From the NCBI GenBank assembly GCA_964355275.1, contig CAYHCB010000002.1:6639-70638 (forward strand): a stretch of 64,000 bases of DNA. Reading direction: 5' to 3'. Under the pieces are notes generated by a model. The model was given only the letters and a program-made list of their open reading frames with translations. It was not told the origin of the DNA and did no database searches. The translations under genes were made by a program, and so were the position numbers. The DNA is from an uncultured Gammaproteobacteria bacterium (GTDB lineage Bacteria; Patescibacteriota; Patescibacteriia; Patescibacteriales; UBA12465). Each line of letters opens with the position of its first letter. The first letter of the stretch is position 1. Positions 831-60,229 of this stretch are shown here, piece after piece.

Positions 831-1280
831 ATGAACCCAGGCGAACAAAATGATCAAAGAGTTTTGTGGATTAAAATAGGAGTCATAAGTTTATTGACTG
901 TTATTTTATTTTTATGGTTGGCTAATTTACGAGGAGTGTTTGAAAGTAGAAATAATAGTACGGATAAAACGTGGGAAAAGATTAGTAGCGATATGAATAA
1001 ATCTTTTCAGGAAGCAGAAAGTCGCTTTAGCGATGTTTCTAGTTCTTCAGACAGTGCCTTCGTTAAAGATTTACTTGATAAAGCTAGCTCTACTGTGACA
1101 AATAATAACTCCGCTAACAAAACAATTAAACAAGAATTATCAGATTTAATAAAAATTGGAACAACCACACCTAAAAGAATTAATTGTCCGCCGTATATAA
1201 ATTGTATGCCTTCAATTGGCGAGGCTAAACCATGTATTATTCCTGCTGGTTGTGAAGATGTTACTCAAATTGCTTATTAA
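831..1280 (+). CDS. Hypothetical membrane-anchored protein with a Cys-containing C-terminus
   Basis: ORF starts 4 nt after ndk. One N-terminal hydrophobic helix (VLWIKIGVISLLTVILFLWLA). Ser/Asn-rich middle. C-terminal CPPYINCMPSIGEAKPCIIPAGC. Confidence 0.45.
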   Translation: MNPGEQNDQRVLWIKIGVISLLTVILFLWLANLRGVFESRNNSTDKTWEKISSDMNKSFQEAESRFSDVSSSSDSAFVKDLLDKASSTVTNNNSANKTIKQELSDLIKIGTTTPKRINCPPYINCMPSIGEAKPCIIPAGCEDVTQIAY

Positions 1281-1293
1281 ACTTTAGAAGTCT

Positions 1294-3792
1294 ATGTCTA
1301 ACGAGAATGAAAAGTCGGAAAAATTAGAAAATATCCGCAAACAAACAGAATTTGGGATGGTTGAAGAACAACCAATCGTCGACGAGATGAGTCGCTCTTA
1401 TTTAGAATACGCTATGAGCGTTATAGTTTCTCGAGCTTTGCCGGATGTGCGCGATGGCATGAAACCAGTTCATCGTCGTATTTTATATGCGATGTGGAGC
1501 ATCGGGCTGAGAGCCAATGCTAAATTTAGAAAATCAGCGACAGTAGTCGGTGAAGTTTTAGGTAAATATCATCCTCATGGCGATAGCGCTGTTTACGATT
1601 CAATGGTTCGTATGGCCCAAGATTTTTCTTTGCGTTATCAATTAGTAAAGGGGCAAGGAAATTTTGGTTCAATGGATGGTGACCCACCAGCGGCGATGCG
1701 TTATACTGAGGCCAAACTATCCGGAATATCTGAAGAAATGTTATTCGACATTGATAAAGATACGGTTGATTTTATACCTAATTTTGATGGCTCACATAAA
1801 GAACCGCGAGTTTTACCAGCTAAATTACCAAATTTATTACTTAACGGTACCATGGGTATTGCTGTTGGTATGTCGACTAATATTCCGCCCCATAATTTAC
1901 GAGAATTATCGGGCGCTATTATTCATTTATTAGATAATCCAGAAGCTAGCATTGAAGATTTAATGGAATTTGTAAAAGGACCAGATTTTCCAACAGGCGG
2001 TATTATTTATAATAAAAAAGATATTTTAACTGCTTACGCTACTGGTCGTGGCGGCATTGTCATGCGGGGTAAAGCAGAAATTCAGGAAAATAAAAATGGT
2101 TTTCAAATTATTATTTCCGAAATCCCTTACCAAGTTAATAAAGCTGATTTGGTTGAAAAAATTGCTGACTTAGTCAAAGATAAAAAAGTTGATGGTATTC
2201 GAGCTTTACGTGATGAGTCTGATAGAGATGGTGTTCGCGTAGTGATTGAAATGAAAAAAGAAGCTTATCCTAAAAAAATATTAAACGCTTTATATAAACA
2301 TACTTCACTGCAAACTACTTTTCACGTTAATATGTTAGCTTTAGTTGATCGTGGTATTCAGCCAAAAGTTTTAACTCTAAAAATGATTTTAGAGGAGTAT
2401 ATTAAACACCGCGAAGAAGTGGTTAAACGTCGCACTCAATTTGAACTTAACAAAGCTTTAGACAGAGCTCATATTTTAGAAGGGCTCATGATTGCGCTTA
2501 AAAATATTGATGAAGTAATTAAAACCATTAAAGCCTCTAAAGATAAAGAAGTGGCTAAAGTAAGTTTAATTAAAAAATTTAAATTATCAGATCGTCAGGC
2601 TGTTGCAATTTTAGAAATGCGTTTGCAAAATTTAGCCAATTTAGAACAACAAAGAATTGAAGATGAACTTAGTGAAAAGAGAAAATTAATAAAAGAACTC
2701 GAAACCTTACTTGCTTCATTAATTAAAATTAGATCTTTAATTAAAGAAGAGTTATTAGCGCTTACTGAAAAATTTGGCGATGAACGTCGTACCGAAATAA
2801 TTCCTCATGGTATTAAGGAATTTAATATGGAGGATTTAGTGCCCAATGAAGAAGCGATTGTCATGATGACGCGCGATGGTTACATTAAGCGTACTGAGCC
2901 AGATACTTTTAAGGTTCAAGCTAGGGGTGGCAAAGGTATTATTGGTTTAACTACTAAGGAGGAGGATTCGGTGTTATTTATGTTCACCACTTTGACCCAT
3001 AATGATATCTTATTTTTTACCACCAAAGGGCGAGTTTTCCAACTTAAAGCCTACGAAATTCCTCAAGCCTCTAGAATCGCTAAAGGTACGCCAATTGTTA
3101 ACTTTTTACAACTTACCGGCGGTGAACAGGTGACCTCTATTTTACCTTTGGATAAAATATCAAATAGTCGTTATCTTTTTTTCGCTACCGAAAAGGGTTT
3201 AGTTAAAAAAGTTGACGTTAGCGCCTTTGCCAATGTTCGTCGCAGTGGTCTTATGGCAATTAAAATTAAAGAAGATGATAAATTAATTTGGGCTAAACCA
3301 ACTTCAGGTAGTGATCATATTCATTTAATAACAGCTCAAGGACAAGCAATTCGCTTTAAAGAAACTGATGTTAGAGATATGGGCCGCAATGCTTCTGGCG
3401 TTAATGGCGTTAGATTACATAAGAACGATCGTTTAATTGGTATTGGAATTGCTAAAACTGATAAAGATAAAATTAGAAAATACCAAGTCTTAACAATTAT
3501 GGCTCGTGGTTACGGAAAACGAACAGATTTCGGTTTGTATAAAGTTCAGGGTCGCGGTGGTAGCGGTATTAAGACGGCAAAAATAACTGAGAAGACCGGC
3601 GAGCTGACTAATGCTTTTTTACTTAATTCGGAAACAATGATTGATCGCGATATCGTAATCATTTCTGATAACGGTCAAGTAATTCGTGTTCCCTTTAAAT
3701 CAATTAGTGTTTTGGGTCGCGATACCCAAGGTGTAAAAATTATGAGATTCAAGGCCGGTGATGACAGGGTGGCTAGCGTTACGTGGGCTTAA
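1294..3792 (+). CDS. gyrA: DNA gyrase subunit A
   Basis: 832 aa. [53 protein letters not shown] (QRDR region) and AAMRYTEA catalytic-Tyr motif. C-terminal beta-pinwheel repeats. Confidence 0.97.
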
Positions 3793-3810
3793 AAATAGAT
3801 TTTAGATAAG

Positions 3811-3839
3811 AAAAAACCGGGCTTGTGTCCGGTTTTTTT
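3811..3839. terminator. Rho-independent terminator, bidirectional (gyrA / minus-strand ORF)
   Basis: aaaaaaCCGGGCttgtGTCCGGttttttt: 8-bp stem with one G-U pair, 4-nt loop, A-tract upstream and T-tract downstream. Confidence 0.75.
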
Positions 3840-3859
3840 GTAGGTTTTATGATCACATT

Positions 3860-4171
3860 TTATGACCATAATCGCGTCATAATAATTGCAATTAATATCA
3901 ACGATACAAGGAGTAGATAAACCCATTTCGGGGTTAGCTTTTTTAGTGAAGTTTTTAAATATCTTTTTTCTAAATCTTTAGCTATAAAAAAACTAATTCC
4001 TAGTAAAGATAAAAATAATAATTCCGGGCCGAGAAATTGGGTTATATTCTTTTTCTCTAGACCAAAATATATTATTAGGAGAGCGACGGGGGCGGCCAAA
4101 ATAAATTGGGCAGCGGCCATAATAAAAAAAAATAAATGACCAATTTTTAAAAGGACTATTTTTATTTTCAT
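3860..4171 (-). CDS. Hypothetical small integral membrane protein (103 aa)
   Basis: Three to four hydrophobic segments. Convergent with gyrA across the terminator. No recognisable motif. Confidence 0.4.
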   Translation of the reverse strand: MKIKIVLLKIGHLFFFIMAAAQFILAAPVALLIIYFGLEKKNITQFLGPELLFLSLLGISFFIAKDLEKRYLKTSLKKLTPKWVYLLLVSLILIAIIMTRLWS

Positions 4172-4324
4172 AAAATATTTTTTATGCCTTTTTCTTTAAA
4201 AGACGGGTTATTTTTAAGGTTCATAATTTTTTTATTCTAGTATTTTATCAAGTTATTGTCAATATGCTAAAAAACTTAAAAGATATATAATAGAAGTAAT
4301 AATTTATTAATTTTTACATATTTT

Positions 4325-5449
4325 ATGGATAACTTATTTATATTTTTGTTTGTTGCGGTTCTCATCAGTTTGACTGTGATTATTTTTATTTTACTTAAGA
4401 AAAAAAATGAAGGAGCAGAAAAAATGACTCCCTTTATGGAGCGCTTAGTTACTCAATCAGAGCAACTAAGTCAGCTTAATCTCCAGAACACCGAGCTTCG
4501 TCAAGAACTAGATCGTAAGTTATCCGAAACTCACCGGGCTAGTCAGGGGCAATTTGAGCAAACTACGCGGATTATTCAAAATATTACCGGACAGTCGGCT
4601 AAACTTATTGCCGATGTAACTGAAAAACTTACTAAGTTAGACGAAACAAATAAACAGGTGGTTAATTTTTCGGCGCAACTTCAAAGTTTGCAAGATATTT
4701 TAAAAAATCCAAAACAACGTGGTATTTTAGGGGAGTATTATTTAGAGGAAACTTTAAAAAATGTATTGCCACCAAAATCTTATGAAATGCAATATAAAAT
4801 GGGTAAGGATGAAAAGACTGGTAAAGATTTAATTGTTGATGCGGTAGTTTTTGTTAAAGATAAAATAATTCCGATCGATGCGAAATTTTCTTTAGAAAAT
4901 TATGAAAGATTACTCAATTGTTCTGATCCGGAGACTCGAAAAAAATTAGAAGTAGCTTTTAAGCAAGATCTTAAAAATAGAATTGATGAAACTGCTAAAT
5001 ATGTAATGCCTAGCCGAGGCACACTCGAATTTGCTTTCATGTTTATCCCTTCAGAATCTATTTATTACGATTTATTAGTTGGTAGTGTAGGCGGCGTTAA
5101 GGTAAATAGTCGCGATTTAATCGAATATGCTTTTCGCGAACGAAAAGTAATTATTATTTCGCCAACTTCATTTTTGGCTTATTTACAAACCGTTTTGCAG
5201 GGACTAAAGGCTATGCAGATTGAAGAAAAGGCCAAAGAAATAAAACAAAATGTAGAAAAATTAGGTAGACACATTATTTCTTATGATGAATTTTTACAAA
5301 AAATGGGTAACAGTTTATCAACCACAGTTAATCATTATAATAGTGCTTATTCTGAGTTTAAAAAAATCGATAAAGACGTTATAAAAATTACTGGCGGTGC
5401 CAGTGAGGTGGAAGTTATAACAATTGAGAGACCAAAAAACGATGAATAA
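4325..5449 (+). CDS. rmuC: DNA recombination protein RmuC
   Basis: N-terminal TM plus coiled coil, then RGILGEYYLEETL...DAVVFVKDKIIPIDAKFSLENY...FMFIPSESIYY, typical of the RmuC nuclease-like family. Confidence 0.85.
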   Translation: MDNLFIFLFVAVLISLTVIIFILLKKKNEGAEKMTPFMERLVTQSEQLSQLNLQNTELRQELDRKLSETHRASQGQFEQTTRIIQNITGQSAKLIADVTEKLTKLDETNKQVVNFSAQLQSLQDILKNPKQRGILGEYYLEETLKNVLPPKSYEMQYKMGKDEKTGKDLIVDAVVFVKDKIIPIDAKFSLENYERLLNCSDPETRKKLEVAFKQDLKNRIDETAKYVMPSRGTLEFAFMFIPSESIYYDLLVGSVGGVKVNSRDLIEYAFRERKVIIISPTSFLAYLQTVLQGLKAMQIEEKAKEIKQNVEKLGRHIISYDEFLQKMGNSLSTTVNHYNSAYSEFKKIDKDVIKITGGASEVEVITIERPKNDE

Positions 5450-53746: not shown

Positions 53747-53817
53747 TCGGGGATCGTCTAATGGTAGGACAGCGGCCTTTGAAGCCGTCGATCTAGGTTC
53801 GAATCCTGGTCCCCGAG
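53747..53817 (+). tRNA. tRNA-Gln (anticodon UUG); its 3' part is the integration target of the downstream element
   Basis: TCGGGGATCGTCTAATGGTAGGACAGCGGCCTTTGAAGCCGTCGATCTAGGTTCGAATCCTGGTCCCCGAG: 7-bp acceptor TCGGGGA/TCCCCGA, CT-TTG-AA anticodon loop, GGTTCGAATCC T-arm. Confidence 0.9.
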
Positions 53818-53822
53818 CATAA
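53802..53822 (+). repeat. attL: 21-bp direct repeat (T-loop to 3' end of tRNA-Gln plus 5 nt)
   Basis: aatcctggtccccgagcataa is identical to 60047-60067. Confidence 0.9.
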
Positions 53823-53870
53823 CAAAAAAAACATATCGTATGATGTGTTTTTTTGTTATATGCCTCGGGG
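53811..53870. terminator. Extended imperfect palindrome / bidirectional terminator spanning the tRNA-Gln 3' end and the element left end
   Basis: ccccgagcataacaaaaaaaACATATCgtatGATGTGTtttttttgttatatgcctcgggg. The inner 7-bp stem (one G-U pair) has A/T tracts, and the outer arms ccccgag.cat.aac pair imperfectly with gtt.at.atg.cctcgggg. Confidence 0.6.
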
Positions 53871-53906
53871 AGAATGGGATGTAGTTGGAACGGCACTTTT
53901 TAATTT

Positions 53907-54758
53907 TTAAATAGTTTTTGACACCAACGGCACATTACCTTGCGCTATAGGAGGCTTTGCCTGTACTAATGTTTTATTTTGAATCAATGGTGTTTTTGGA
54001 ACAAATAAATAATCATTAGATTCAAATATAGCTCTATCTTGAATTACTAGTTTTCTATCTAAATATTTTATTAAATTATCTGCTACAACTTTATGGTCTC
54101 CAACCATTTTTTTGTAATATTCACATCTTGTTATATCATCAAAAGTCCATCCAACAGTTGATTGAAAATTTTCTTTTTTTACAAAATCAACCATTTCATT
54201 TAAATAATTTTTTGCTACTCCCATATTTTCAACCATAAGGGCTCTGAATACCCTTAAATAGTAAAAAATCATATAATCTCTTGGTTCTTCTAATACATTT
54301 TTTTGAAAAGACTTCTTTTTTTCAAGACAACTAATAATCTCATCAAAGTCTTGGATTTGACCTGCTATTAAAAATGCCTCAGCTAAATTAAAAAATACAG
54401 TACTGTTTCTTTTTATATAAAGCGCTTCTTTCCATGAACTTATTGCATTAAAATAACGCATATTTTTTAAATGAGATAAACCTATTTCTTCCAACTTTGA
54501 AAACCTGGATTCAGTGAGTTGTGTCAAAGCAAAAAATGTTGCTATTATACCAAAAATAAGCGCTATACATTGAAAAGCCAGACTTAATGCTGTTAATCTG
54601 TTATCCCACGTAGAAATTTTAGGAATAATTACTAATAAAGCAATTAAGGCTATTACTATTAGTGATGAAGAAGAAAACCAGAATCTAAACGAAAAAGTGG
54701 GATATTTGAAAATTCGTTCAAAAAGACTTTTTTTTCTTTTTTTATATTCTATTCTCAT
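53907..54758 (-). CDS. Element cargo: 2-TM membrane protein with a cytoplasmic TPR-like helical-repeat domain (283 aa)
   Basis: Basic N-terminus and two hydrophobic helices (SLIVIALIALLVIIP; LAFQCIALIFGIIATFFAL), then helical repeats (YFNAISSWKEALYIKRNSTVFFNLAEAFLIAGQ...). Starts 19 nt downstream of the NTPase gene on the same strand. Confidence 0.5.
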   Translation of the reverse strand: MRIEYKKRKKSLFERIFKYPTFSFRFWFSSSSLIVIALIALLVIIPKISTWDNRLTALSLAFQCIALIFGIIATFFALTQLTESRFSKLEEIGLSHLKNMRYFNAISSWKEALYIKRNSTVFFNLAEAFLIAGQIQDFDEIISCLEKKKSFQKNVLEEPRDYMIFYYLRVFRALMVENMGVAKNYLNEMVDFVKKENFQSTVGWTFDDITRCEYYKKMVGDHKVVADNLIKYLDRKLVIQDRAIFESNDYLFVPKTPLIQNKTLVQAKPPIAQGNVPLVSKTI

Positions 54759-54777
54759 ATTTTTTATATTTATTTTT

Positions 54778-55998
54778 TTATCTTTTTAAACGAACATAAT
54801 TATCAAATAATATAGCCGTTCTAAAAAGCTGAGAATGAAGACATAGCTTTTTATCCTCATCACTTTTTATAGCTCCCGTCTTTAATAATTTTGGAATATA
54901 TTGGTATGTGTTTTTGCCTATTTTTGTGTTCAAGTCCTTCTTTGATACTGGTCCACTTGCTTGAGCTAATTCTAGTAAAATTTTATCACCCACCGTTAGT
55001 GGTTTTCCAAAAGAATACATTGCAGAAAATTCTTTTGACTTTAAACTTAATACAGCATCAAGCGTGGCATCATCCCAATCGGCTTGGTCTACATTTCCAT
55101 CATTATCAGAATTAATTAAGTGATGTCCAATTATTTGTATAGAATGAGGATAACCTCCTGCAACAGAGATATTTTTATTCATAGCTTCTTCATCCCATTT
55201 TATTCCTGTCATTTCAAACCCCTTTTTTAAAACTTCTTTCGCCTCGTCCTCTGGCATAACACCTAGACTTATCAAATCAAAAGTTCTCCTTGACGAAGAA
55301 TCTTTTGAAAAAAACTTTTCCATATCTTCATTATACCCAACCAGTATAAAAGATATTTTTCCTTTATTATCAACATCTAGCGTGGTTATTATGTTTCTTA
55401 GAATTGATGCAGATGAAGCAATATCAGCTAGATTATTCATTTCATCAATTATAATAAGAATGCCATCTTTATTTTTTTCTGATTTTTTTGGATTTTCTTC
55501 GCTTATAGCGCTTATTAAATTAGAAAGTATGCCAACCGTTTGGTCTTTTATGGTTATCTCTTTTTGTATATTATTTTTTCCAGCCTCAACACCTAAATTA
55601 AAACCATAAGCACCTATTTCAAACTTTCCATTATTAAAAAGCGCACCCAATTTGCCACCTATTTCAGATATCAAGTTTTTATCCATACTGTCTGCAACCT
55701 TATTAACACTTTCCTGCAGAACACTTCCTATTTCTTGCCCCTTTTCAACAGCGTAATAAGAAGTTAATAAATCCAAATTATATAAATCTCCATCATTTAA
55801 AGAAGCTACGGATTTTATTAATTTAACCAACGCCGTTTTTCCTATACCTCTTTCTCCATATATAAAGAAACTCGATGGCATATTTAGTTTTATCGATGCT
55901 AACTTTTTACAAATTTCACCTACTTGGTTTATTCTTCCGGCAAATAAATTTGTTCCAACAACCGAATTAGGATTGAAAGGATTACTTTTTGCAAACAT
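54778..55998 (-). CDS. Element cargo: STAND/ORC-Cdc6-like P-loop NTPase (AAA_16 / archaeal-ATPase-like) with a C-terminal winged-helix-like region (406 aa)
   Basis: FAGRINQVGEI...FFIYGERGIGKTALV (Walker A), ILIIIDEMNNL (Walker B), AGGYPHSIQIIGHHL (GxP-type motif of STAND helical domains), C-terminal SGPVSKKDLNTKIGKNTYQYIPKLLKTGAI (wHTH-like). Confidence 0.6.
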   Translation of the reverse strand: MFAKSNPFNPNSVVGTNLFAGRINQVGEICKKLASIKLNMPSSFFIYGERGIGKTALVKLIKSVASLNDGDLYNLDLLTSYYAVEKGQEIGSVLQESVNKVADSMDKNLISEIGGKLGALFNNGKFEIGAYGFNLGVEAGKNNIQKEITIKDQTVGILSNLISAISEENPKKSEKNKDGILIIIDEMNNLADIASSASILRNIITTLDVDNKGKISFILVGYNEDMEKFFSKDSSSRRTFDLISLGVMPEDEAKEVLKKGFEMTGIKWDEEAMNKNISVAGGYPHSIQIIGHHLINSDNDGNVDQADWDDATLDAVLSLKSKEFSAMYSFGKPLTVGDKILLELAQASGPVSKKDLNTKIGKNTYQYIPKLLKTGAIKSDEDKKLCLHSQLFRTAILFDNYVRLKR

Positions 55999-56090
55999 AT
56001 TTTTTTATATAAATTTTATTAATTATATATATTTCATATATATTACTATAATAATATATCAAAACAATATAAAAAACAATAAAAATGCAA

Positions 56091-56126
56091 ATATTTTGAC
56101 TAAATATTGCTAATAAGTCAAAATAT
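56091..56126. promoter_or_regulatory. Perfect 11-bp inverted repeat (candidate operator) in the element's divergent control region
   Basis: ATATTTTGACT-(14 nt)-AGTCAAAATAT, ending 7 nt before the ATG of ORF 56133. It lies in the 134-bp gap between divergent genes. Confidence 0.4.
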
Positions 56127-56132
56127 AGTCAT

Positions 56133-57071
56133 ATGGACAAAAAACTACTGAAAAGAGAGTTAATCGACTACAACCGTCAATTCAAACAAATGATGGGGAC
56201 TTTTGGCAGTTTTGAGATAGTTTATGATTATATAAACTTTATTACATCAGACTTATATCTAGCAGAAAAACTTCTTCCTACTGCCACTATACTTGAAAAA
56301 GAAGCTCAAAATCTAGAAGCTAGTAATATAGACCCAGATAACTTTTCTTTTGACATTTCTTCTCCAGAAGGCGTCAGCCAAATGCCAATTTTTAAAGATT
56401 TATATCTTGCTTGCCAAGAAAACATAAAAAGCAAAAAAGATATAGATTTAATGATTGCCCTCCCTGCTTACATCGCTGTCTTATCTCAAGCGGCTTTTAT
56501 GATAGAAGAGATAAAAGACAATCAAAAACTTGGCAATACTGAAGAAGTTAAAAAAATGATAGAAAATATTAAGATTAAATCTTTTTCGGTAGTTGATACA
56601 CCTATGTTAAATGGCGTTGAGAATAAAAAAAAGACCTATGGTCAGTACCTTGATGTAGCAATGGAGTTAGTAAACAAATTTTTAATTGATGAAATAGACT
56701 CAGAATCTTTACTGGAGAACGAAAAGCCTCAGGCTAATTTATCCTATAACTCAGATAATTGTTTGCTATACATAAATGGTAAAGAAATAAAAATAAAACT
56801 AAAAACAGTTAAACCAGTTGATGCTTTTATTTTAGACGCATTATTTTCCGACATTAATAATCTTGGAGAAGAAATGGATTTAAGTGAAGTTGCTAGTTAT
56901 TTTGATACTGAAGCCTCTTATAACAACTCAAACGATTATCAGCGATACCGACACGCTTGTGATAATTTAAATAAAAAAATAGCAAAGCAAACTGATAATA
57001 AAATAACTGACTTTATAGTGTACACAACCGGCAAGACTGGTTGGTGCAAAATCAATAAAAAATACCTGTAA
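56133..57071 (+). CDS. Element protein with a possible C-terminal OmpR/PhoB-like winged-helix DNA-binding domain (312 aa)
   Basis: The C-terminal about 100 aa (LLYINGKEIKIKLKTVKPVDAFILDALFS...YQRYRHACDNLNKKIAKQTDNKITDFIVYTTGKTGWCKIN) follows the trans_reg_C pattern (target...LT..E...L...; RLRKKl...; tvrG.GY.l). The N-terminal part is unassigned. Confidence 0.4.
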   Translation: MDKKLLKRELIDYNRQFKQMMGTFGSFEIVYDYINFITSDLYLAEKLLPTATILEKEAQNLEASNIDPDNFSFDISSPEGVSQMPIFKDLYLACQENIKSKKDIDLMIALPAYIAVLSQAAFMIEEIKDNQKLGNTEEVKKMIENIKIKSFSVVDTPMLNGVENKKKTYGQYLDVAMELVNKFLIDEIDSESLLENEKPQANLSYNSDNCLLYINGKEIKIKLKTVKPVDAFILDALFSDINNLGEEMDLSEVASYFDTEASYNNSNDYQRYRHACDNLNKKIAKQTDNKITDFIVYTTGKTGWCKINKKYL

Positions 57072-57090
57072 AAACAAGACTTCTTAAATA

Positions 57091-57127
57091 AAGAGCCTGC
57101 ACGCAAGATAGTGCAAGGCTCTTTTTG
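57091..57127 (+). terminator. Rho-independent terminator after ORF 56133
   Basis: aAGAGCCTGCACgcaagataGTGCAAGGCTCTtttt: stem of about 11 bp with a one-nt bulge, then a T-tract. Confidence 0.65.
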
Positions 57128-57139
57128 TATACTTTGGTC

Positions 57140-57283
57140 ATGATTCAATTTAGTCAAAACTTACTAGATGATGCCAAAGATTATTTTAGCTCATTATATG
57201 GTCGAGAAATAAGCAATGAAGAAGCTGAATCTTTTTTAATGTCGTTATTAAATTTCTACAATTCCCTTTCATCGGAGAATTAA
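57140..57283 (+). CDS. Possible small element ORF (47 aa)
   Basis: Hand-translated MIQFSQNLLDDAKDYFSSLYGREISNEEAESFLMSLLNFYNSLSSEN*. It fills the gap between the terminator and the GC-rich hairpin. No motif recognised. Confidence 0.25.
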   Translation: MIQFSQNLLDDAKDYFSSLYGREISNEEAESFLMSLLNFYNSLSSEN

Positions 57284-57286
57284 AGG

Positions 57287-57338
57287 CTTTTTTCTTTTTT
57301 GCGCCGTCTCGCGTAGCGAGGCGCGGAAAAGAAAAAGG
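57287..57338. other. GC-cored imperfect hairpin about 50 nt upstream of rep: candidate double-strand origin (nick site) of rolling-circle replication
   Basis: cttttttcttttttGCGCCgtcTCGCgtaGCGAGGCGCggaaaagaaaaagg. GC-rich core stem with a 3-nt bulge, extended by a pyrimidine/purine-tract stem. It is the most GC-rich stretch I noticed by eye in the element. Confidence 0.4.
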
Positions 57339-57390
57339 TTATCCTTGTTAAGAGAACTTCTAATTAGAACTAGAAACTAATAATAAATAT

Positions 57391-58338
57391 ATGAAACAAC
57401 AAGATAATAAATACCTATCCAATCGTAAACTGGTAAAATCTGGCTCATTACTTGAGATATATCAGTTTGGTCGGGATATTCATTTAGAGCGCAGAATCAG
57501 ACACATCAAAACCGAGGAAGAAATTGAAGAGGCCAAGAAATTCCCCAAACCCAAGGCTAGCCAGGAAGAAATATTGAAGTCTTCCGCTCGCCGAGCCAAA
57601 CGAATGATTAAACGGCTGATTATGGCTAACTGCTTTCTATGGTTTAAGGAAAAGGGTAAACCATACTTGCCGATTACTCTGACTTTAACATTCGCCGAGA
57701 ATATTACAGACCTCAAAAAAGCCAATTATGAATTTACTAAATTTATCAGACGGCTCAATTATGAAACTAATGGTATTGAAGGCAAAGACTTAAAACAAAG
57801 TAATTTAAAATATTTAGCGGTCTTTGAACTGCAAAAAAGAGGAGCGATTCATTATCATATGATATTTTTCAATCTGCCTTATATCAAAGATGTTTATCGG
57901 AAAATGTATAAGATATGGGGGCAAGGCCGAATTATGGTTGGCGGAAAAGATAAAAATTTTACAAAGGTCAAAAATCAGGCACAACTGCAAAAGATTATTT
58001 TCTATTTCATTAAATATATTCAAAAATCTGTCTTTGAAAATAACTGCCCTCGGCAAAAGAAATATATCGCCAGTAAAGGACTACTCAAACCGCAAGAAAA
58101 TTCTTTTGTTGAAGTCGTGTCGCTCGTGGAATCAAAACTGCCCTCGGAATCTTTGGTCTATAAATATGACGGCGAAACAGAATATAACCAGAGCGATATT
58201 AATGACACTATCGGCAAGCCAGTAAATTTCATGCGTTGGTTTAATTATCAGCAATATGACCTTTCTAATTTTCCCGAATTAGACGAAAACATCGCCGAGA
58301 TACTAACTGGCCATTCTTTGGACGATATTGATTTTTAA
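57391..58338 (+). CDS. HUH-superfamily rolling-circle replication initiator (Rep)
   Basis: Three canonical motifs in order: motif 1 PITLTLTF, motif 2 GAIHYHMIFF (HUH), motif 3 IIFYFIKYIQK (Y-x3-Y-x2-K, the two-tyrosine arrangement of phiX174 gpA). Confidence 0.8.
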   Translation: MKQQDNKYLSNRKLVKSGSLLEIYQFGRDIHLERRIRHIKTEEEIEEAKKFPKPKASQEEILKSSARRAKRMIKRLIMANCFLWFKEKGKPYLPITLTLTFAENITDLKKANYEFTKFIRRLNYETNGIEGKDLKQSNLKYLAVFELQKRGAIHYHMIFFNLPYIKDVYRKMYKIWGQGRIMVGGKDKNFTKVKNQAQLQKIIFYFIKYIQKSVFENNCPRQKKYIASKGLLKPQENSFVEVVSLVESKLPSESLVYKYDGETEYNQSDINDTIGKPVNFMRWFNYQQYDLSNFPELDENIAEILTGHSLDDIDF

Positions 58339-58362
58339 TCTGTTCTTTAGTATATTAATAGT

Positions 58363-58489
58363 ATTGACCTAACATAATAAACAGACATGCCCAGGGTATT
58401 TTTTTAACAAATACCTTTTGTCGCTCGAAATGGGCAGTTCTGCCAAACGATAAATTAACCTTTGGGCTAGTTTGTTATGTTGGGTCAAT
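58363..58489. other. 127-nt extended imperfect palindrome between rep and the recombinase gene: candidate single-strand origin or structured regulatory RNA
   Basis: Outer arms ATTGACCTAACATAATAAAC (58363-58382) and GTTTGTTATGTTGGGTCAAT (58470-58489) are complementary at 18/20. Inner pairings: GCCCA/TGGGC, GGTATTT/AAATACC, GGCA/TGCC. Confidence 0.4.
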
Positions 58490-58525
58490 CAGGACTGCCC
58501 TTTTTGATTATTAAATAATAATTAT

Positions 58526-60067
58526 ATGAACGACAAAAATGAAGCCACAATTAAATACGCCCTCTACTGCCGAAAGTCTACCGAAGACAGCAGTCGGCAA
58601 ATTCTTTCTTTAGATTCACAAGAGAAAGAAATGCTACAATTAGCCGATTCTTTAAATTTGAGCATTGACTACAAATTTAGAGAAAGTAAATCAGCTAAGA
58701 AACCAGATAACCGTCCGCAATTTTCCGAACTTATCAATTTGATCAAGCGAGGCAAAATTCAGGGCGTTATCTGTTGGAAGATTGACCGCTTATCTCGTAA
58801 TCCGATAGACTCGGCCACTATTCAATGGCTATTGCAACAGAATGAACTCAAAATTATTCAAACAATGGAAAGACAATATCTGCCTGGCGATAATGCTTTG
58901 CTCTTTAATGTAGAAAGCGGAATGGCTAATCAATATATTTTAGACTTATCAAAAAATGTTAAACGAGGGATAAGAGCTAAACTGGAAAAAGGCGGTTGGC
59001 CGAATCTGGCTCCTTTGGGATACTTAAACAAAGACAGTAAAATAATTATTGATAAGGCGAGAGGAAAATATATCGTTAAAATATTTGAGATGTATAAGAC
59101 TGGGAAATATAGCGTTAAAGAAATTGCTGATACTTTGTTTAAAGAGGGCTTTAGAAGTCGGGCGCATAATAAATATCATAAAAGTAAAATTCATAAAATG
59201 CTGTCCGATTCTTTCTACTGCGGAATAATGGAAAAGGACGGAGCTATCTATCAGGGTAATCATGAGCCGTTAATCTCTAAAAAACTATTTGACGAGGTGC
59301 AAGAAATGCTAACTAAAAAATCCCATATCAAAAAACAAAATATTCCTTTCGCTTTTAGAGGTATGTTGAGGTGTGCCAAGTGTGGTTGTCTGCTAACAGC
59401 CACCAAGAAAAAAGGCCGACTAACTTATTACTATTGTACTAACGGCAAGAATGTCTGCGAGGAGCATAAAGCCTATATCAAAGAGGAGAATTTATCGACC
59501 GAATTAAATAATGTTTTTGATAACTTAATCTTTGACGAAAAGGTCGTTAATCTCGTCTATCGGGCTAAACTCAAAGAAAGCGGTAATGTCTTGTCCTACT
59601 TGGAAGAGGCTATTCTCGGTCTTCAAAATAGGCTCAAAACGCTAGATGAACGCAAGAAAGTTCTGATAGACGGCTACTTGGATAAAGTTGTTTTAGAGGG
59701 CGACTATAAGGCCAAGAATCAGATAATAGAAAATGAGATAGTGTTAATTAATAAAGACCTGCAGGAGTTAGAAACTAAAAAATCTAGCCAAGATAATATT
59801 ACTTTGGAACGGATAAGAAATGCGTTTTTAGAGCCTAAAATAATGCAAAAAGAGTTTTTATTGCAAAAACCTGACGAACAGCGAAATACCCTAATTGATG
59901 TACTTTGGAACGCTAGCGTTGCCAACAAAAAAATCGCTAATATTTCTTTTAAAGAGCCATATAATGTCCTCTCTAAAATTGAAAATAAAAGCGATTTTGA
60001 TTCAGTGCGAAGAGGCGGGGATTCGAAGTTTATGCCCGAAGGGGTAAATCCTGGTCCCCGAGCATAA
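58526..60067 (+). CDS. Large serine recombinase (integrase)
   Basis: YALYCRKSTEDSSRQILSLDSQ (catalytic Ser region), ICWKIDRLSRN, recombinase domain, zinc ribbon LRCAKCGCLLTA...YYYCTNGKNVCEEH, C-terminal coiled coil. The last codons and the TAA lie inside the 21-bp attR repeat. Confidence 0.9.
   Translation: MNDKNEATIKYALYCRKSTEDSSRQILSLDSQEKEMLQLADSLNLSIDYKFRESKSAKKPDNRPQFSELINLIKRGKIQGVICWKIDRLSRNPIDSATIQWLLQQNELKIIQTMERQYLPGDNALLFNVESGMANQYILDLSKNVKRGIRAKLEKGGWPNLAPLGYLNKDSKIIIDKARGKYIVKIFEMYKTGKYSVKEIADTLFKEGFRSRAHNKYHKSKIHKMLSDSFYCGIMEKDGAIYQGNHEPLISKKLFDEVQEMLTKKSHIKKQNIPFAFRGMLRCAKCGCLLTATKKKGRLTYYYCTNGKNVCEEHKAYIKEENLSTELNNVFDNLIFDEKVVNLVYRAKLKESGNVLSYLEEAILGLQNRLKTLDERKKVLIDGYLDKVVLEGDYKAKNQIIENEIVLINKDLQELETKKSSQDNITLERIRNAFLEPKIMQKEFLLQKPDEQRNTLIDVLWNASVANKKIANISFKEPYNVLSKIENKSDFDSVRRGGDSKFMPEGVNPGPRA
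60047..60067 (+). repeat. attR: 21-bp direct repeat
   Basis: aatcctggtccccgagcataa is identical to 53802-53822. The preceding about 30 nt show only loose resemblance to the tRNA-Gln 3' half. Confidence 0.9.
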
Positions 60068-60068
60068 T

Positions 60069-60097
60069 TAAAAAATGAGCCGAAATGCTCATTTTTG
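60069..60097 (+). terminator. Rho-independent terminator immediately after attR
   Basis: aaaaaATGAGCcgaaatGCTCATtttt: 6-7-bp stem. It has the same A-tract / hairpin / T-tract-gtta layout as the sites at 53823 and 61468. Confidence 0.7.
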
Positions 60098-60229
60098 TTA
60101 GTTTATAAGTTTCAGAGTAGGTAGTTATATTTTTAGTATTTTAGTAAATAGGCTTATTTTATTGGATAAAATTAGTTCGAATACTTATCTTGTTTAATTA
60201 ATATTTATTTTCATATATAATCTAGATAT

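Follow-up and report, generated by a model that had tools for sequence, protein, structure and literature searches.

A serine recombinase element probably nested in an older mini-insert beside a tRNA-Gln gene of a Patescibacteria genome

We investigated a locus in which a large serine recombinase (LSR) gene lies close to a tRNA-Gln(UUG) gene, within a stretch of 64,000 nt of contig CAYHCB010000002.1 from an uncultured member of the Patescibacteriota (this whole stretch is called the window below; related loci carry L numbers). A first reading made from the letters alone, here called the sequence-only reading, had described an integrative element of 6.2 kb bounded by a perfect 21-bp direct repeat, and had attributed the repeat to this recombinase, as an attL/attR duplication. 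An integrative element with a genuine LSR and an HUH replication initiator (Rep) is indeed present, and we observed that the locus is polymorphic and that the LSR belongs to a tRNA-associated clade. For the ends of the element and the origin of the repeat we favor, with a probability of about 0.6, a nested arrangement in which an element E of about 6.14 kb (53881-60022, 6,142 bp) has inserted into a tRNA-Ser-like relic within an older mini-insert M. The inner layer would be M, an insert of ~82 bp downstream of tRNA-Gln. M is made up of a hairpin that looks like a terminator in both directions and of an antisense stretch similar to a tRNA 3' end (a pseudo-core, then CGAAGTTTATGCCC...GGGGTA), and on either side of it lies a copy of the tRNA-Gln 3' end; these two copies are the 21-bp repeat. 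The outer layer would be E, which belongs to a Patescibacteria-wide family in which a module of four genes (p312, p52, Rep and LSR) is followed by the attachment site. The attP of this family would be composed of the LSR coding end, a tRNA-Ser-like core and an arm, G(T/C)A(G/C)TTGGAACGG, that mimics a T-loop displaced by 4-5 bp. The usual target would be a tRNA 3' end in antisense orientation, so that the LSR open reading frame (ORF) runs into the tRNA; in the window E would have used the tRNA-Ser-like relic in M, not a real tRNA, and no tRNA would have been touched. Once E is excised, its HUH Rep would allow replication in the form of a small rolling-circle plasmid. Below we describe the anatomy of the locus, its homologies, its family context and its colinearity with element-free relatives, all of which are direct observations.

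The 21-bp repeat and element-free relatives

The 21-mer AATCCTGGTCCCCGAGCATAA occurs in two exact copies, at 53802-53822 and 60047-60067; no further copy was found in the window at up to two mismatches, and the number expected in shuffled sequences is 0. It spans the last 16-17 nt of tRNA-Gln, starting in the 3' half of the T-loop, and 4-5 nt of the trailer. The perfect repeat at tRNA-Gln(UUG) was thus described correctly by the sequence-only reading, and the tRNA is recognized by both ARAGORN and Rfam. The non-coding parts of the locus are, from left to right:

53747..53818, plus strand: tRNA-Gln(UUG), intact host gene beside the insertion hot spot (ARAGORN; Rfam RF00005 at 53747-53817, 64.4 bits)
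53802..53822, plus strand: outer direct repeat, copy 1 (core1), from the T-loop 3' half to the tRNA 3' end plus ATAA
53823..53855, no strand assigned: hairpin (d) of A-run, stem and T-run, bidirectional terminator-like, part of M; counterparts at the same place in L135, L164 and L140
53861..53880, plus strand: left junction core (e), TGCCTCGGGGAGAATGGGAT; the crossover would lie somewhere inside
53881..53894, plus strand: P' arm, GTAGTTGGAACGGC, predicted left end of element E; identical 14-mer in L019
60006..60027, plus strand: right junction core (a), TGCGAAGAGGCGGGGATTCGAA, antisense tRNA-Ser(GCT)-like 3' end adjoining the LSR coding end
60023..60046, plus strand: segment (b), TCGAAGTTTATGCCCGAAGGGGTA, right part of M; GATTCGAAGTTTATGCC is common to L135 and L164
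60047..60067, plus strand: outer direct repeat, copy 2 (core2), holding the LSR stop codon
60071..60096, plus strand: native terminator-like hairpin of the tRNA-Gln trailer (terminator scan; conserved in L124)

The two hairpins fold well: we calculated -21.2 kcal/mol (z = -7.5) for 53800-53885 and -12.8 kcal/mol (z = -5.1) for the RNA of 60060-60105.

The evidence for a nested locus comes foremost from two related metagenome contigs without any element protein, L135 and L164. When 53881-60022 is removed from the window, the remaining sequence aligns colinearly with both contigs across the deletion point, and no difference is seen in GGATTCGAAGTTTATGCCC and AGGGGTAAATCCT across the predicted point of insertion. 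In L135 an insert of 98 bp is flanked by perfect 24-bp copies of the tRNA-Gln end, which lie 115 nt apart; L164, which is syntenic with the window (FtsEX upstream, 69% identity), contains the same mini-insert with a degenerate second tRNA-end copy. Both show the order tRNA-Gln, hairpin, antisense pseudo-core of 18-20 nt ending in GGATT, CGAAGTTTATGCCCC, a loop, GGGGTA and the second tRNA-end copy. The GATTCGAAGTTTATGCC of segment (b) recurs beside tRNA-Gln in both contigs, where it is continuous with the hairpin and the pseudo-core. As L135 and L164 carry M without the element, the 21-bp repeat brackets a structure that exists alone. From this comparison, E most likely lies inside M, and the repeat probably predates E and is not a duplication made by this LSR. 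For a tRNA-integrating island, an element-free genome should carry a single copy of the repeat; L135 has two perfect copies. The comparison with element-free relatives, which the sequence-only reading had itself suggested, therefore runs contrary to its view of the repeat as an att duplication: the mini-insert and the repeat structure are kept where the element is missing.

An assembly artefact, which had been named as a possible source of the repeat, was also considered. Left and right junctions as in the window were found again in three independent assemblies (Logan ERR3856787 and ERR3687825; ENA ERZ4201064), with the loci L001, L002, L003, L008 and L009. Since the same junctions were obtained independently, the locus is not an assembly artefact. 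We further observed that Logan contigs from four runs all begin or end within a stretch of 30 nt of tRNA-Gln (53760-53789), which points to a branch in the assembly graph. Most simply this is caused by a tRNA common to co-occurring species, and alternative occupants of the site would give the same picture; we discarded these breaks as evidence because the tRNA sequence is common to other species in the same samples.

With regard to the origin of M, we observed that its right part (window 60030-60046) ends in (AT)AGGGGTAAA, as in the variable arm of an antisense tRNA-Ser(GCT) (compared with L018 2160-2185 and L164 2150-2170). M may go back to a convergent tRNA-Ser gene, now decayed, of which it would represent the 3' half.

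The recombinase clade and the ends of element E

Next, we examined the relatives of the window LSR. A search returned 2096 homologues at E < 1e-20, and the named ones are mostly from Patescibacteria. Proteins that cluster with those of the window are labelled Falkowbacteria or Patescibacteria. We inspected 80 GTDB loci out of 340 relatives, 72 of which could be evaluated at the LSR 3' end. In 52 of these 72 the LSR 3' end overlaps an antisense tRNA 3' end (ARAGORN), and in 4 more such a tRNA lies within 400 nt. The targets in these 56 loci are tRNA-Ser (41, all isoacceptors), tRNA-Gln (8), tRNA-Val (3), tRNA-Tyr (2), tRNA-Pro (1) and tRNA-Leu (1). The C-terminal tails of the homologues have in common ...KSDFSSVRRGRDSNP..., which is the translated antisense T-arm of a tRNA, and then diverge. 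The module p312-p52-Rep-LSR is conserved, with matches to Rep in 56 loci, to p312 in 37 and to p52 in at least 25, and in the loci inspected for gene order (L216, L220, L221) it is arranged as in the window. Rep lies ~190 nt upstream of the LSR in the listed loci with a near-full-length match, with L030 as an exception. The closest LSRs (L016-L029) are 91-96% identical to that of the window and are located at tRNA-Ser genes, and several genomes of the clade carry three or four copies.

The attachment sites follow a common rule. Upstream of the module a site of the form (T)GCGGAGAGGGTGGGAC + G(T/C)A(G/C)TTGGAACGG is constant in at least 12 loci, whatever precedes it, while the core beside the LSR stop differs between loci with different tRNA-Ser isoacceptors and fits the body of the tRNA-Ser concerned with correct pairing. 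Therefore the constant tRNA-like core and its arm would be element-borne (the P' side), and the LSR-side core would belong to the host tRNA. For the clade we infer a crossover within the shared TGCGGAGAG, at the acceptor end. The arm contains TTGGAAC, an imitation of the T-loop TTCGAAC placed 4-5 bp further out. In serine integrases the half-sites of attP and attB differ, as seen in structures of A118-type integrases, and the offset of the arm would agree with this. The motif GG[GA]A[TC]N3-5TT[GC][GA]AA[CT] was found upstream of the LSR in 40 of 83 sources; a stricter form of it matches the window only twice, in the P' arm and in the real T-arm of the tRNA. Some relatives (L091, L092) show identities of 16-20 bp where the core matches the tRNA. 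Repeats of 18-20 bp in L019, L020 and L075 were tried as element ends and are better read as mini-insert repeats.

Applied to the window, these rules place the ends of E between the copies of the 21-bp repeat and not at them. At the far end (53861-53894) the window carries a tRNA-mimicking core followed by a P' arm, and the left core together with the 14-nt arm shows 25/30 ungapped identities to the constant site GCGGAGAGGGTGGGAC+GTAGTTGGAACGGC (counted by hand). At the other end the LSR coding end ...GATTTTGATTCAG is followed by TGCGAAGAGGCGGGGATTCGAAG, which is identical at 21/23 positions to the tRNA-Ser(GCT) ends that are overlapped by the LSR genes of L018, L034 and L035; a G-to-A difference lies at 60010. 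Neither ARAGORN nor Rfam detected a tRNA gene at the LSR end of the window; a 23-nt tRNA-Ser(GCT)-like fragment is present instead, and the overlap of the LSR with an intact antisense tRNA that marks the clade is not seen here. Beyond the right core follow the 24 nt of TCGAAGTTTATGCCCGAAGGGGTA and then the right repeat copy. The two junction cores agree only in a TGC at one end and in a GGGAT at the opposite end. Such a short common core is ordinary for a serine integrase, and the contrast with other LSRs that the sequence-only reading had drawn from a long shared identity does not apply. It is correct, as had been noted, that the last 7 codons of the LSR and its stop lie within the right repeat copy, and this tRNA-derived tail is incidental. 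After excision via the inner sites the tail ...DSKFMPEGVNPGPRA would become ...DVVGTALFNF (translation of 53881 onward), with a length of 508 aa for the free form, contrary to the expectation that the ORF stays intact. The catalysis of the insertion by this LSR, the exact crossover, excision and replication are likewise what we infer from sequence.

The use of a pseudo-site by E has a precedent, because in L220 (11480-11560 of Ga0395987_000003, a contig of 373 kb) the LSR, a close relative, adjoins the non-tRNA sequence ...GGGATT followed by CGAAGCTAATTT. This may be a second pseudo-site insertion. Just past CGAAGCTAATTT a transposase gene of the IS256 family is located.

The model of the sequence-only reading regards the whole 6.2-kb unit as mobile: its own LSR would have recombined an attP that contains the tRNA-Gln 3' end with the chromosomal tRNA-Gln and thereby duplicated 21 bp. 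The perfect repeat, which includes 4-5 nt of native trailer, speaks for this model, as do the different occupants of tRNA-Gln in near-identical strains (described below) and the chromosomal loci of relatives in which an inverted tRNA-like fragment and a hairpin lie just past the LSR end. However, L135 has the repeat-bracketed structure without the element, and L164 likewise with its degenerate second copy; the sequence left of the right repeat copy is unlike the P' arm of the clade; the LSR would have to act in the orientation opposite to 56 of 72 relatives, for which no second example was found among the 80 loci; and the canonical LSR-proximal core would stay unrecombined. We therefore consider a mobile 6.2-kb unit unlikely. 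A first working model, with a crossover in the T-loop, a tRNA 3' end supplied by the element and flipped integration via a second inverted core, was abandoned, because the upstream core is constant while the LSR-side core varies with the tRNA, and because L135 and L164 show the repeat without the element. No flipped integration was found among 16 relatives without a tRNA at the LSR end.

The tRNA-Gln site has other occupants in related genomes. A contig of a sister strain (L011; JGI 3300010965, Ga0138308_111419) matches the window at 98.85% identity across 1,214 nt, as far as the final base of tRNA-Gln, after which the similarity is lost completely. At 1143-5295 it contains a different element, which encodes an LSR of 566 aa (29% identical to the window LSR) that runs antisense through almost the whole tRNA, a PF23343 Rep of 254 aa and an ArdcN-like ORF. 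An encoded CCA comes with this element and is missing from the tRNA-Gln of the window. In L124 two one-gene cassettes lie between tRNA-Gln and the conserved right flank, whose homology to the window begins at 60048, and each of them ends in a degenerate tRNA-end copy. Read on the minus strand (L124 8100-9320), the cassettes end in AAAGTTCCAATCTTATCCCAGTC(A/C)CCGAGCA and a terminator. In this sequence a motif like the P' arm, reverse-complemented, is fused to a degenerate tRNA-Gln end; the cassettes are probably relics of decayed elements. L140 carries an insert of 200 bp between two 18-bp tRNA-end copies.

Signs of accretion were also seen at other sites of the clade. Junctions resembling attP are present within long contigs of chromosomal DNA (L030, L221, L222). 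In addition, three to five copies of the constant site (GCGGAGAGGGTGGGAC plus P' arm), 0.4-3.6 kb apart, form arrays upstream of a single LSR:

L033, 107-5250: constant-site array, five sites
L050, 2155-4200: constant-site array
L064, 111-4910: constant-site array

The chromosomal attP-like junctions and the arrays indicate tandem accretion, and by analogy to the ssrA arrays of Dehalococcoides the arrays suggest accreted cassettes without a recombinase. A different history of the window locus has to be weighed here, in which the arrangement was built without this LSR, either by another tRNA-Gln-specific serine recombinase acting in trans or by homologous recombination among repeats resembling tRNA ends, and in which E would be a stranded fragment of a tandem array. 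A tRNA-Gln-targeting LSR with 29% identity is present at this very site in the sister strain, accretion and decay are common (L030, L033 with its five sites, L221), and decayed cassettes occur at this locus in L124. Against these points stand the backbone ORFs, all of which are intact, both junctions, which have the canonical form of the clade, and the repeats on which homologous recombination could act, which are only 17-24 bp long. Such a history seems to us rather improbable.

Several observations weigh against the nested arrangement in its present form. The left core differs from the constant core of the clade at 5 of 16 positions and is partly palindromic with the tRNA-Gln end: its left part is an inverted copy of the tRNA-Gln acceptor end, and together with the hairpin it forms a near-palindrome of 62 nt. 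Because of these mismatches and the palindromy the crossover cannot be placed within the core of ~20 bp, part of which may be derived from the target. The hairpin and the pseudo-core of M differ among the window, L135 and L164, and clear homology is restricted to the right part. At this site L124 and L140, the nearest relatives of the host (~80% identity), have other inserts; M was therefore not simply inherited. Neither an excised circle nor an empty M site of the same species was found. A scan of IMG/VR and of JGI metagenomes with the exact 21-mer gave 0 matches in each, look-ups of exact proteins (LSR, Rep, FtsX, hydrolase) returned only integrated junctions or contigs breaking in the tRNA, and activity of E in the form of an excision junction was recovered by neither. 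Finally, no recombination directionality factor was identified in the element.

Gene content of element E and side features of the clade

Between the repeat copies we found six ORFs, two on the minus strand and four on the plus strand, in agreement with the LSR, HUH Rep, small ORF and antisense two-gene cargo of the sequence-only reading:

53907..54758, minus strand: cargo ORF, 283 aa, no Pfam, PHROG or NCBIfam family
54778..55998, minus strand: cargo ORF, 406 aa, P-loop NTPase (ATPase_2 / AAA_16 / STAND-like; PF01637 1e-9, phrog_6841 2e-19)
56133..57071, plus strand: backbone ORF p312, 312 aa, conserved upstream of Rep in 37 related loci
57125..57283, plus strand: backbone small ORF p52, 52 aa, conserved between p312 and Rep in at least 25 related loci
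57391..58338, plus strand: HUH rolling-circle replication initiator with two-tyrosine motif III, 315 aa (PF23343 8e-17, phrog_3419 2e-25)
58526..60067, plus strand: LSR, 513 aa in the integrated state, three Pfam domains

The recombinase contains all parts of a large serine recombinase, a catalytic Resolvase domain (PF00239, 8e-23, residues 12-158), a C-terminal Recombinase domain (PF07508, 3e-16) and a zinc ribbon (Zn_ribbon_recom, PF13408, 3e-7). In the YCRKS motif, R16 and S18 are invariant among 27 aligned homologues (alignment A1), and so are the zinc-ribbon cysteines C283, C286, C304 and C311. An additional ORF for a small serine recombinase was not seen in E. The translation of Rep shows the motifs TLTLTF, HYHMIF (HUH) and YFIKYIQK (YxxxY..K), as expected for a two-tyrosine HUH initiator. 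Its relatives are initiators of rolling-circle plasmids of 1.5-7 kb from Geobacillus, Brevibacillus and Fusobacterium, and a weak match to the Spiroplasma phage SVGII3, a plectrovirus, was observed as well.

This match, together with PF23343, which takes in the initiators of inoviruses and plectroviruses, raises the question of whether E is an integrated single-stranded DNA prophage of filamentous or plectrovirus-like type. However, none of the ORFs matched a Zot-like assembly ATPase, a coat protein or another virion family in Pfam, PHROG or NCBIfam, IMG/VR contains no close relative of the LSR (best match 29% identical), and the better Rep matches are small plasmids. A prophage is thus highly improbable. 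Because Rep has relatives among the initiators of small plasmids and because neither virion genes nor a close relative in IMG/VR were found, we regard E as a plasmid-like element that integrates and that, after excision, would use rolling-circle replication. A transfer gene was not detected in the element.

The backbone p312-p52-Rep-LSR is common to the clade and the cargo is present only in the window copy; since the backbone is conserved and the cargo unique, E is regarded as the mobile unit. Neither cargo gene was found in the related loci of the clade that were inspected. PADLOC and NCBIfam gave only marginal matches for the cargo, among them a PycTM-like match of the 283-aa ORF (E = 0.005), and no defence system was called. 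The element had also been described as more AT-rich than its surroundings. This is true for the cargo half (54000-56500), where the GC content is 0.25-0.32 compared to 0.29-0.35 in the flanks, but not for the Rep/LSR half with 0.34-0.37. Similarly, the putative winged-helix protein of the sequence-only reading corresponds to p312, and the resemblance is restricted to its C-terminal domain. In an AF2 structure model (mean pLDDT 84.5) this domain alone resembles the winged helices of PhoB/RpaA (PhoB/OmpR), at a non-significant level (probability 0.77-0.80, E > 0.3), and when the model was compared with the PDB by Foldseek, no full-length match reached significance; a C-terminal winged-helix DNA-binding domain is possible from the model. 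The small p52 is a candidate accessory or directionality factor.

Two further features of the clade were recognized. In the genome of Falkowbacteria ELA532 at least four LSR copies are present at 93-97% identity (L021, L023, L030, L033). One of them (L030, JBAXPN010000002.1, protein P0007) lacks the first 56 codons and is annotated as a fusion protein of 568 aa with a GNAT acetyltransferase at its N terminus. Moreover, a GC-rich module of 45-170 nt that starts with T(C/T)CGCCTCA..CGCTCGCC has an antisense copy of a tRNA end on one side and, on the other, an inverted pseudo-tRNA end with hairpin:

L027, 748-900: GC-rich module
L019, 5826-5870: GC-rich module
L020, 1373-1490: GC-rich module
L075, 6362-6480: GC-rich module
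L140, 8830-8985: GC-rich module
L055, 10265-10467: GC-rich module

The module is found in otherwise AT-rich genomes, beside LSR genes or alone between tRNA-Gln repeats (L140, L199). A structured RNA and a non-autonomous element are both conceivable; no Rfam family matched the module or the hairpin.

Implications and comparison with known systems

Beyond the window, our data allow a tentative proposal, which we consider possible rather than probable: Patescibacteria would hold a large undescribed family of elements with an LSR and a rolling-circle Rep, whose attP mimics a tRNA 3' end, whose attB is the acceptor and T-arm, and for which mini-inserts serve as decoy landing pads. If this is true, many tRNA genes of Patescibacteria carry short repeat-bracketed mini-inserts composed of a hairpin and an inverted pseudo-tRNA end, some with the GC-rich module of 45-170 nt, and mini-inserts that are picked up or exchanged by elements would be a new kind of non-autonomous partner of serine integrases. 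To our knowledge, serine integrases, the main tools for the insertion of large DNA, are usually said not to use tRNA genes, and a coherent clade, hundreds of members in size, in which the conserved acceptor and T-arm of tRNAs are recognized would change the view that they avoid them. At 91-96% protein identity, clade members sit at different tRNA-Ser isoacceptors and at tRNA-like pseudo-sites, and the clade may therefore provide natural material on how LSRs tolerate or switch targets. It also offers candidate parts for integration and replication in Patescibacteria, for which almost no genetic tools exist. For annotation, a perfect tRNA-derived repeat around an integrase gene need not mark the att sites of that integrase. 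In a full-text search of the literature on serine integrases or recombinases with tRNA integration or Patescibacteria, we found no description of this clade.

The closest described analogue is the group of ssrA islands in Dehalococcoides, which carry the serine integrase DsiB and are delimited by direct repeats of ~20 bp of the tmRNA 3' end, with an inferred insertion point in the T-loop (McMurdie et al. 2011, PMC3146451). In every case the DsiB ORF extends over the att site and has its end within the RNA gene, on the opposite strand, so that its C-terminal tails vary, and tandem arrays as well as recombinase-less cassettes between repeats occur (PMC3146451). Compared by described traits and not by sequence, both systems have an LSR at a tRNA-like 3' end, repeats of ~20 bp, an ORF overlap on the opposite strand, variable C-terminal tails and arrays. 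In contrast to the ssrA islands, the clade targets ordinary tRNA genes (Ser, Gln, Val, Tyr, Pro) and not tmRNA, has one recombinase gene and no DsiA/DsiB pair, includes an HUH Rep in its module and is found in Patescibacteria hosts; the window element in particular would sit in a pseudo-site and not in an RNA gene.

The staphylococcal cassette chromosome (SCC) elements with CcrAB or CcrC resemble the locus in having an LSR, insertion at the 3' end of a conserved gene and repeats longer than usual for serine integrases. However, the NCBIfam Ccr models match the window LSR only weakly (E about 1e-20 to 1e-21, 73-77 bits compared to curated cut-offs of 700-900), a ccrA/ccrB pair is missing, the target is not rlmH, and the element is much smaller and carries a Rep, so that it does not belong to SCC. 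Elements of the pSAM2 type in actinomycetes combine the rolling-circle initiator RepSA with a tyrosine integrase and Xis at a tRNA gene, and they carry transfer genes. Like E, pSAM2 is a small element that joins tRNA integration with a rolling-circle initiator acting after excision. The matches of RepSA to the window Rep are faint, and pSAM2 differs by its tyrosine integrase, Xis and transfer genes, whereas E has a serine recombinase and, as far as detected, no gene for transfer.

Islands with a serine integrase at a t(m)RNA gene were also predicted in the computational TIGER survey (14 of 297 serine-integrase islands), whose authors noted that such cases were unreported and needed proof, and which cites phiRSM as having a resolvase-like site-specific integrase (Mageeney et al. 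2020, PMC7192596). The phiRSM enzyme is a small serine recombinase without the Recombinase and zinc-ribbon domains, unlike the window LSR. The TIGER cases are scattered and unverified, whereas the Patescibacteria clade is coherent, with a tRNA association in 56 of 72 loci.

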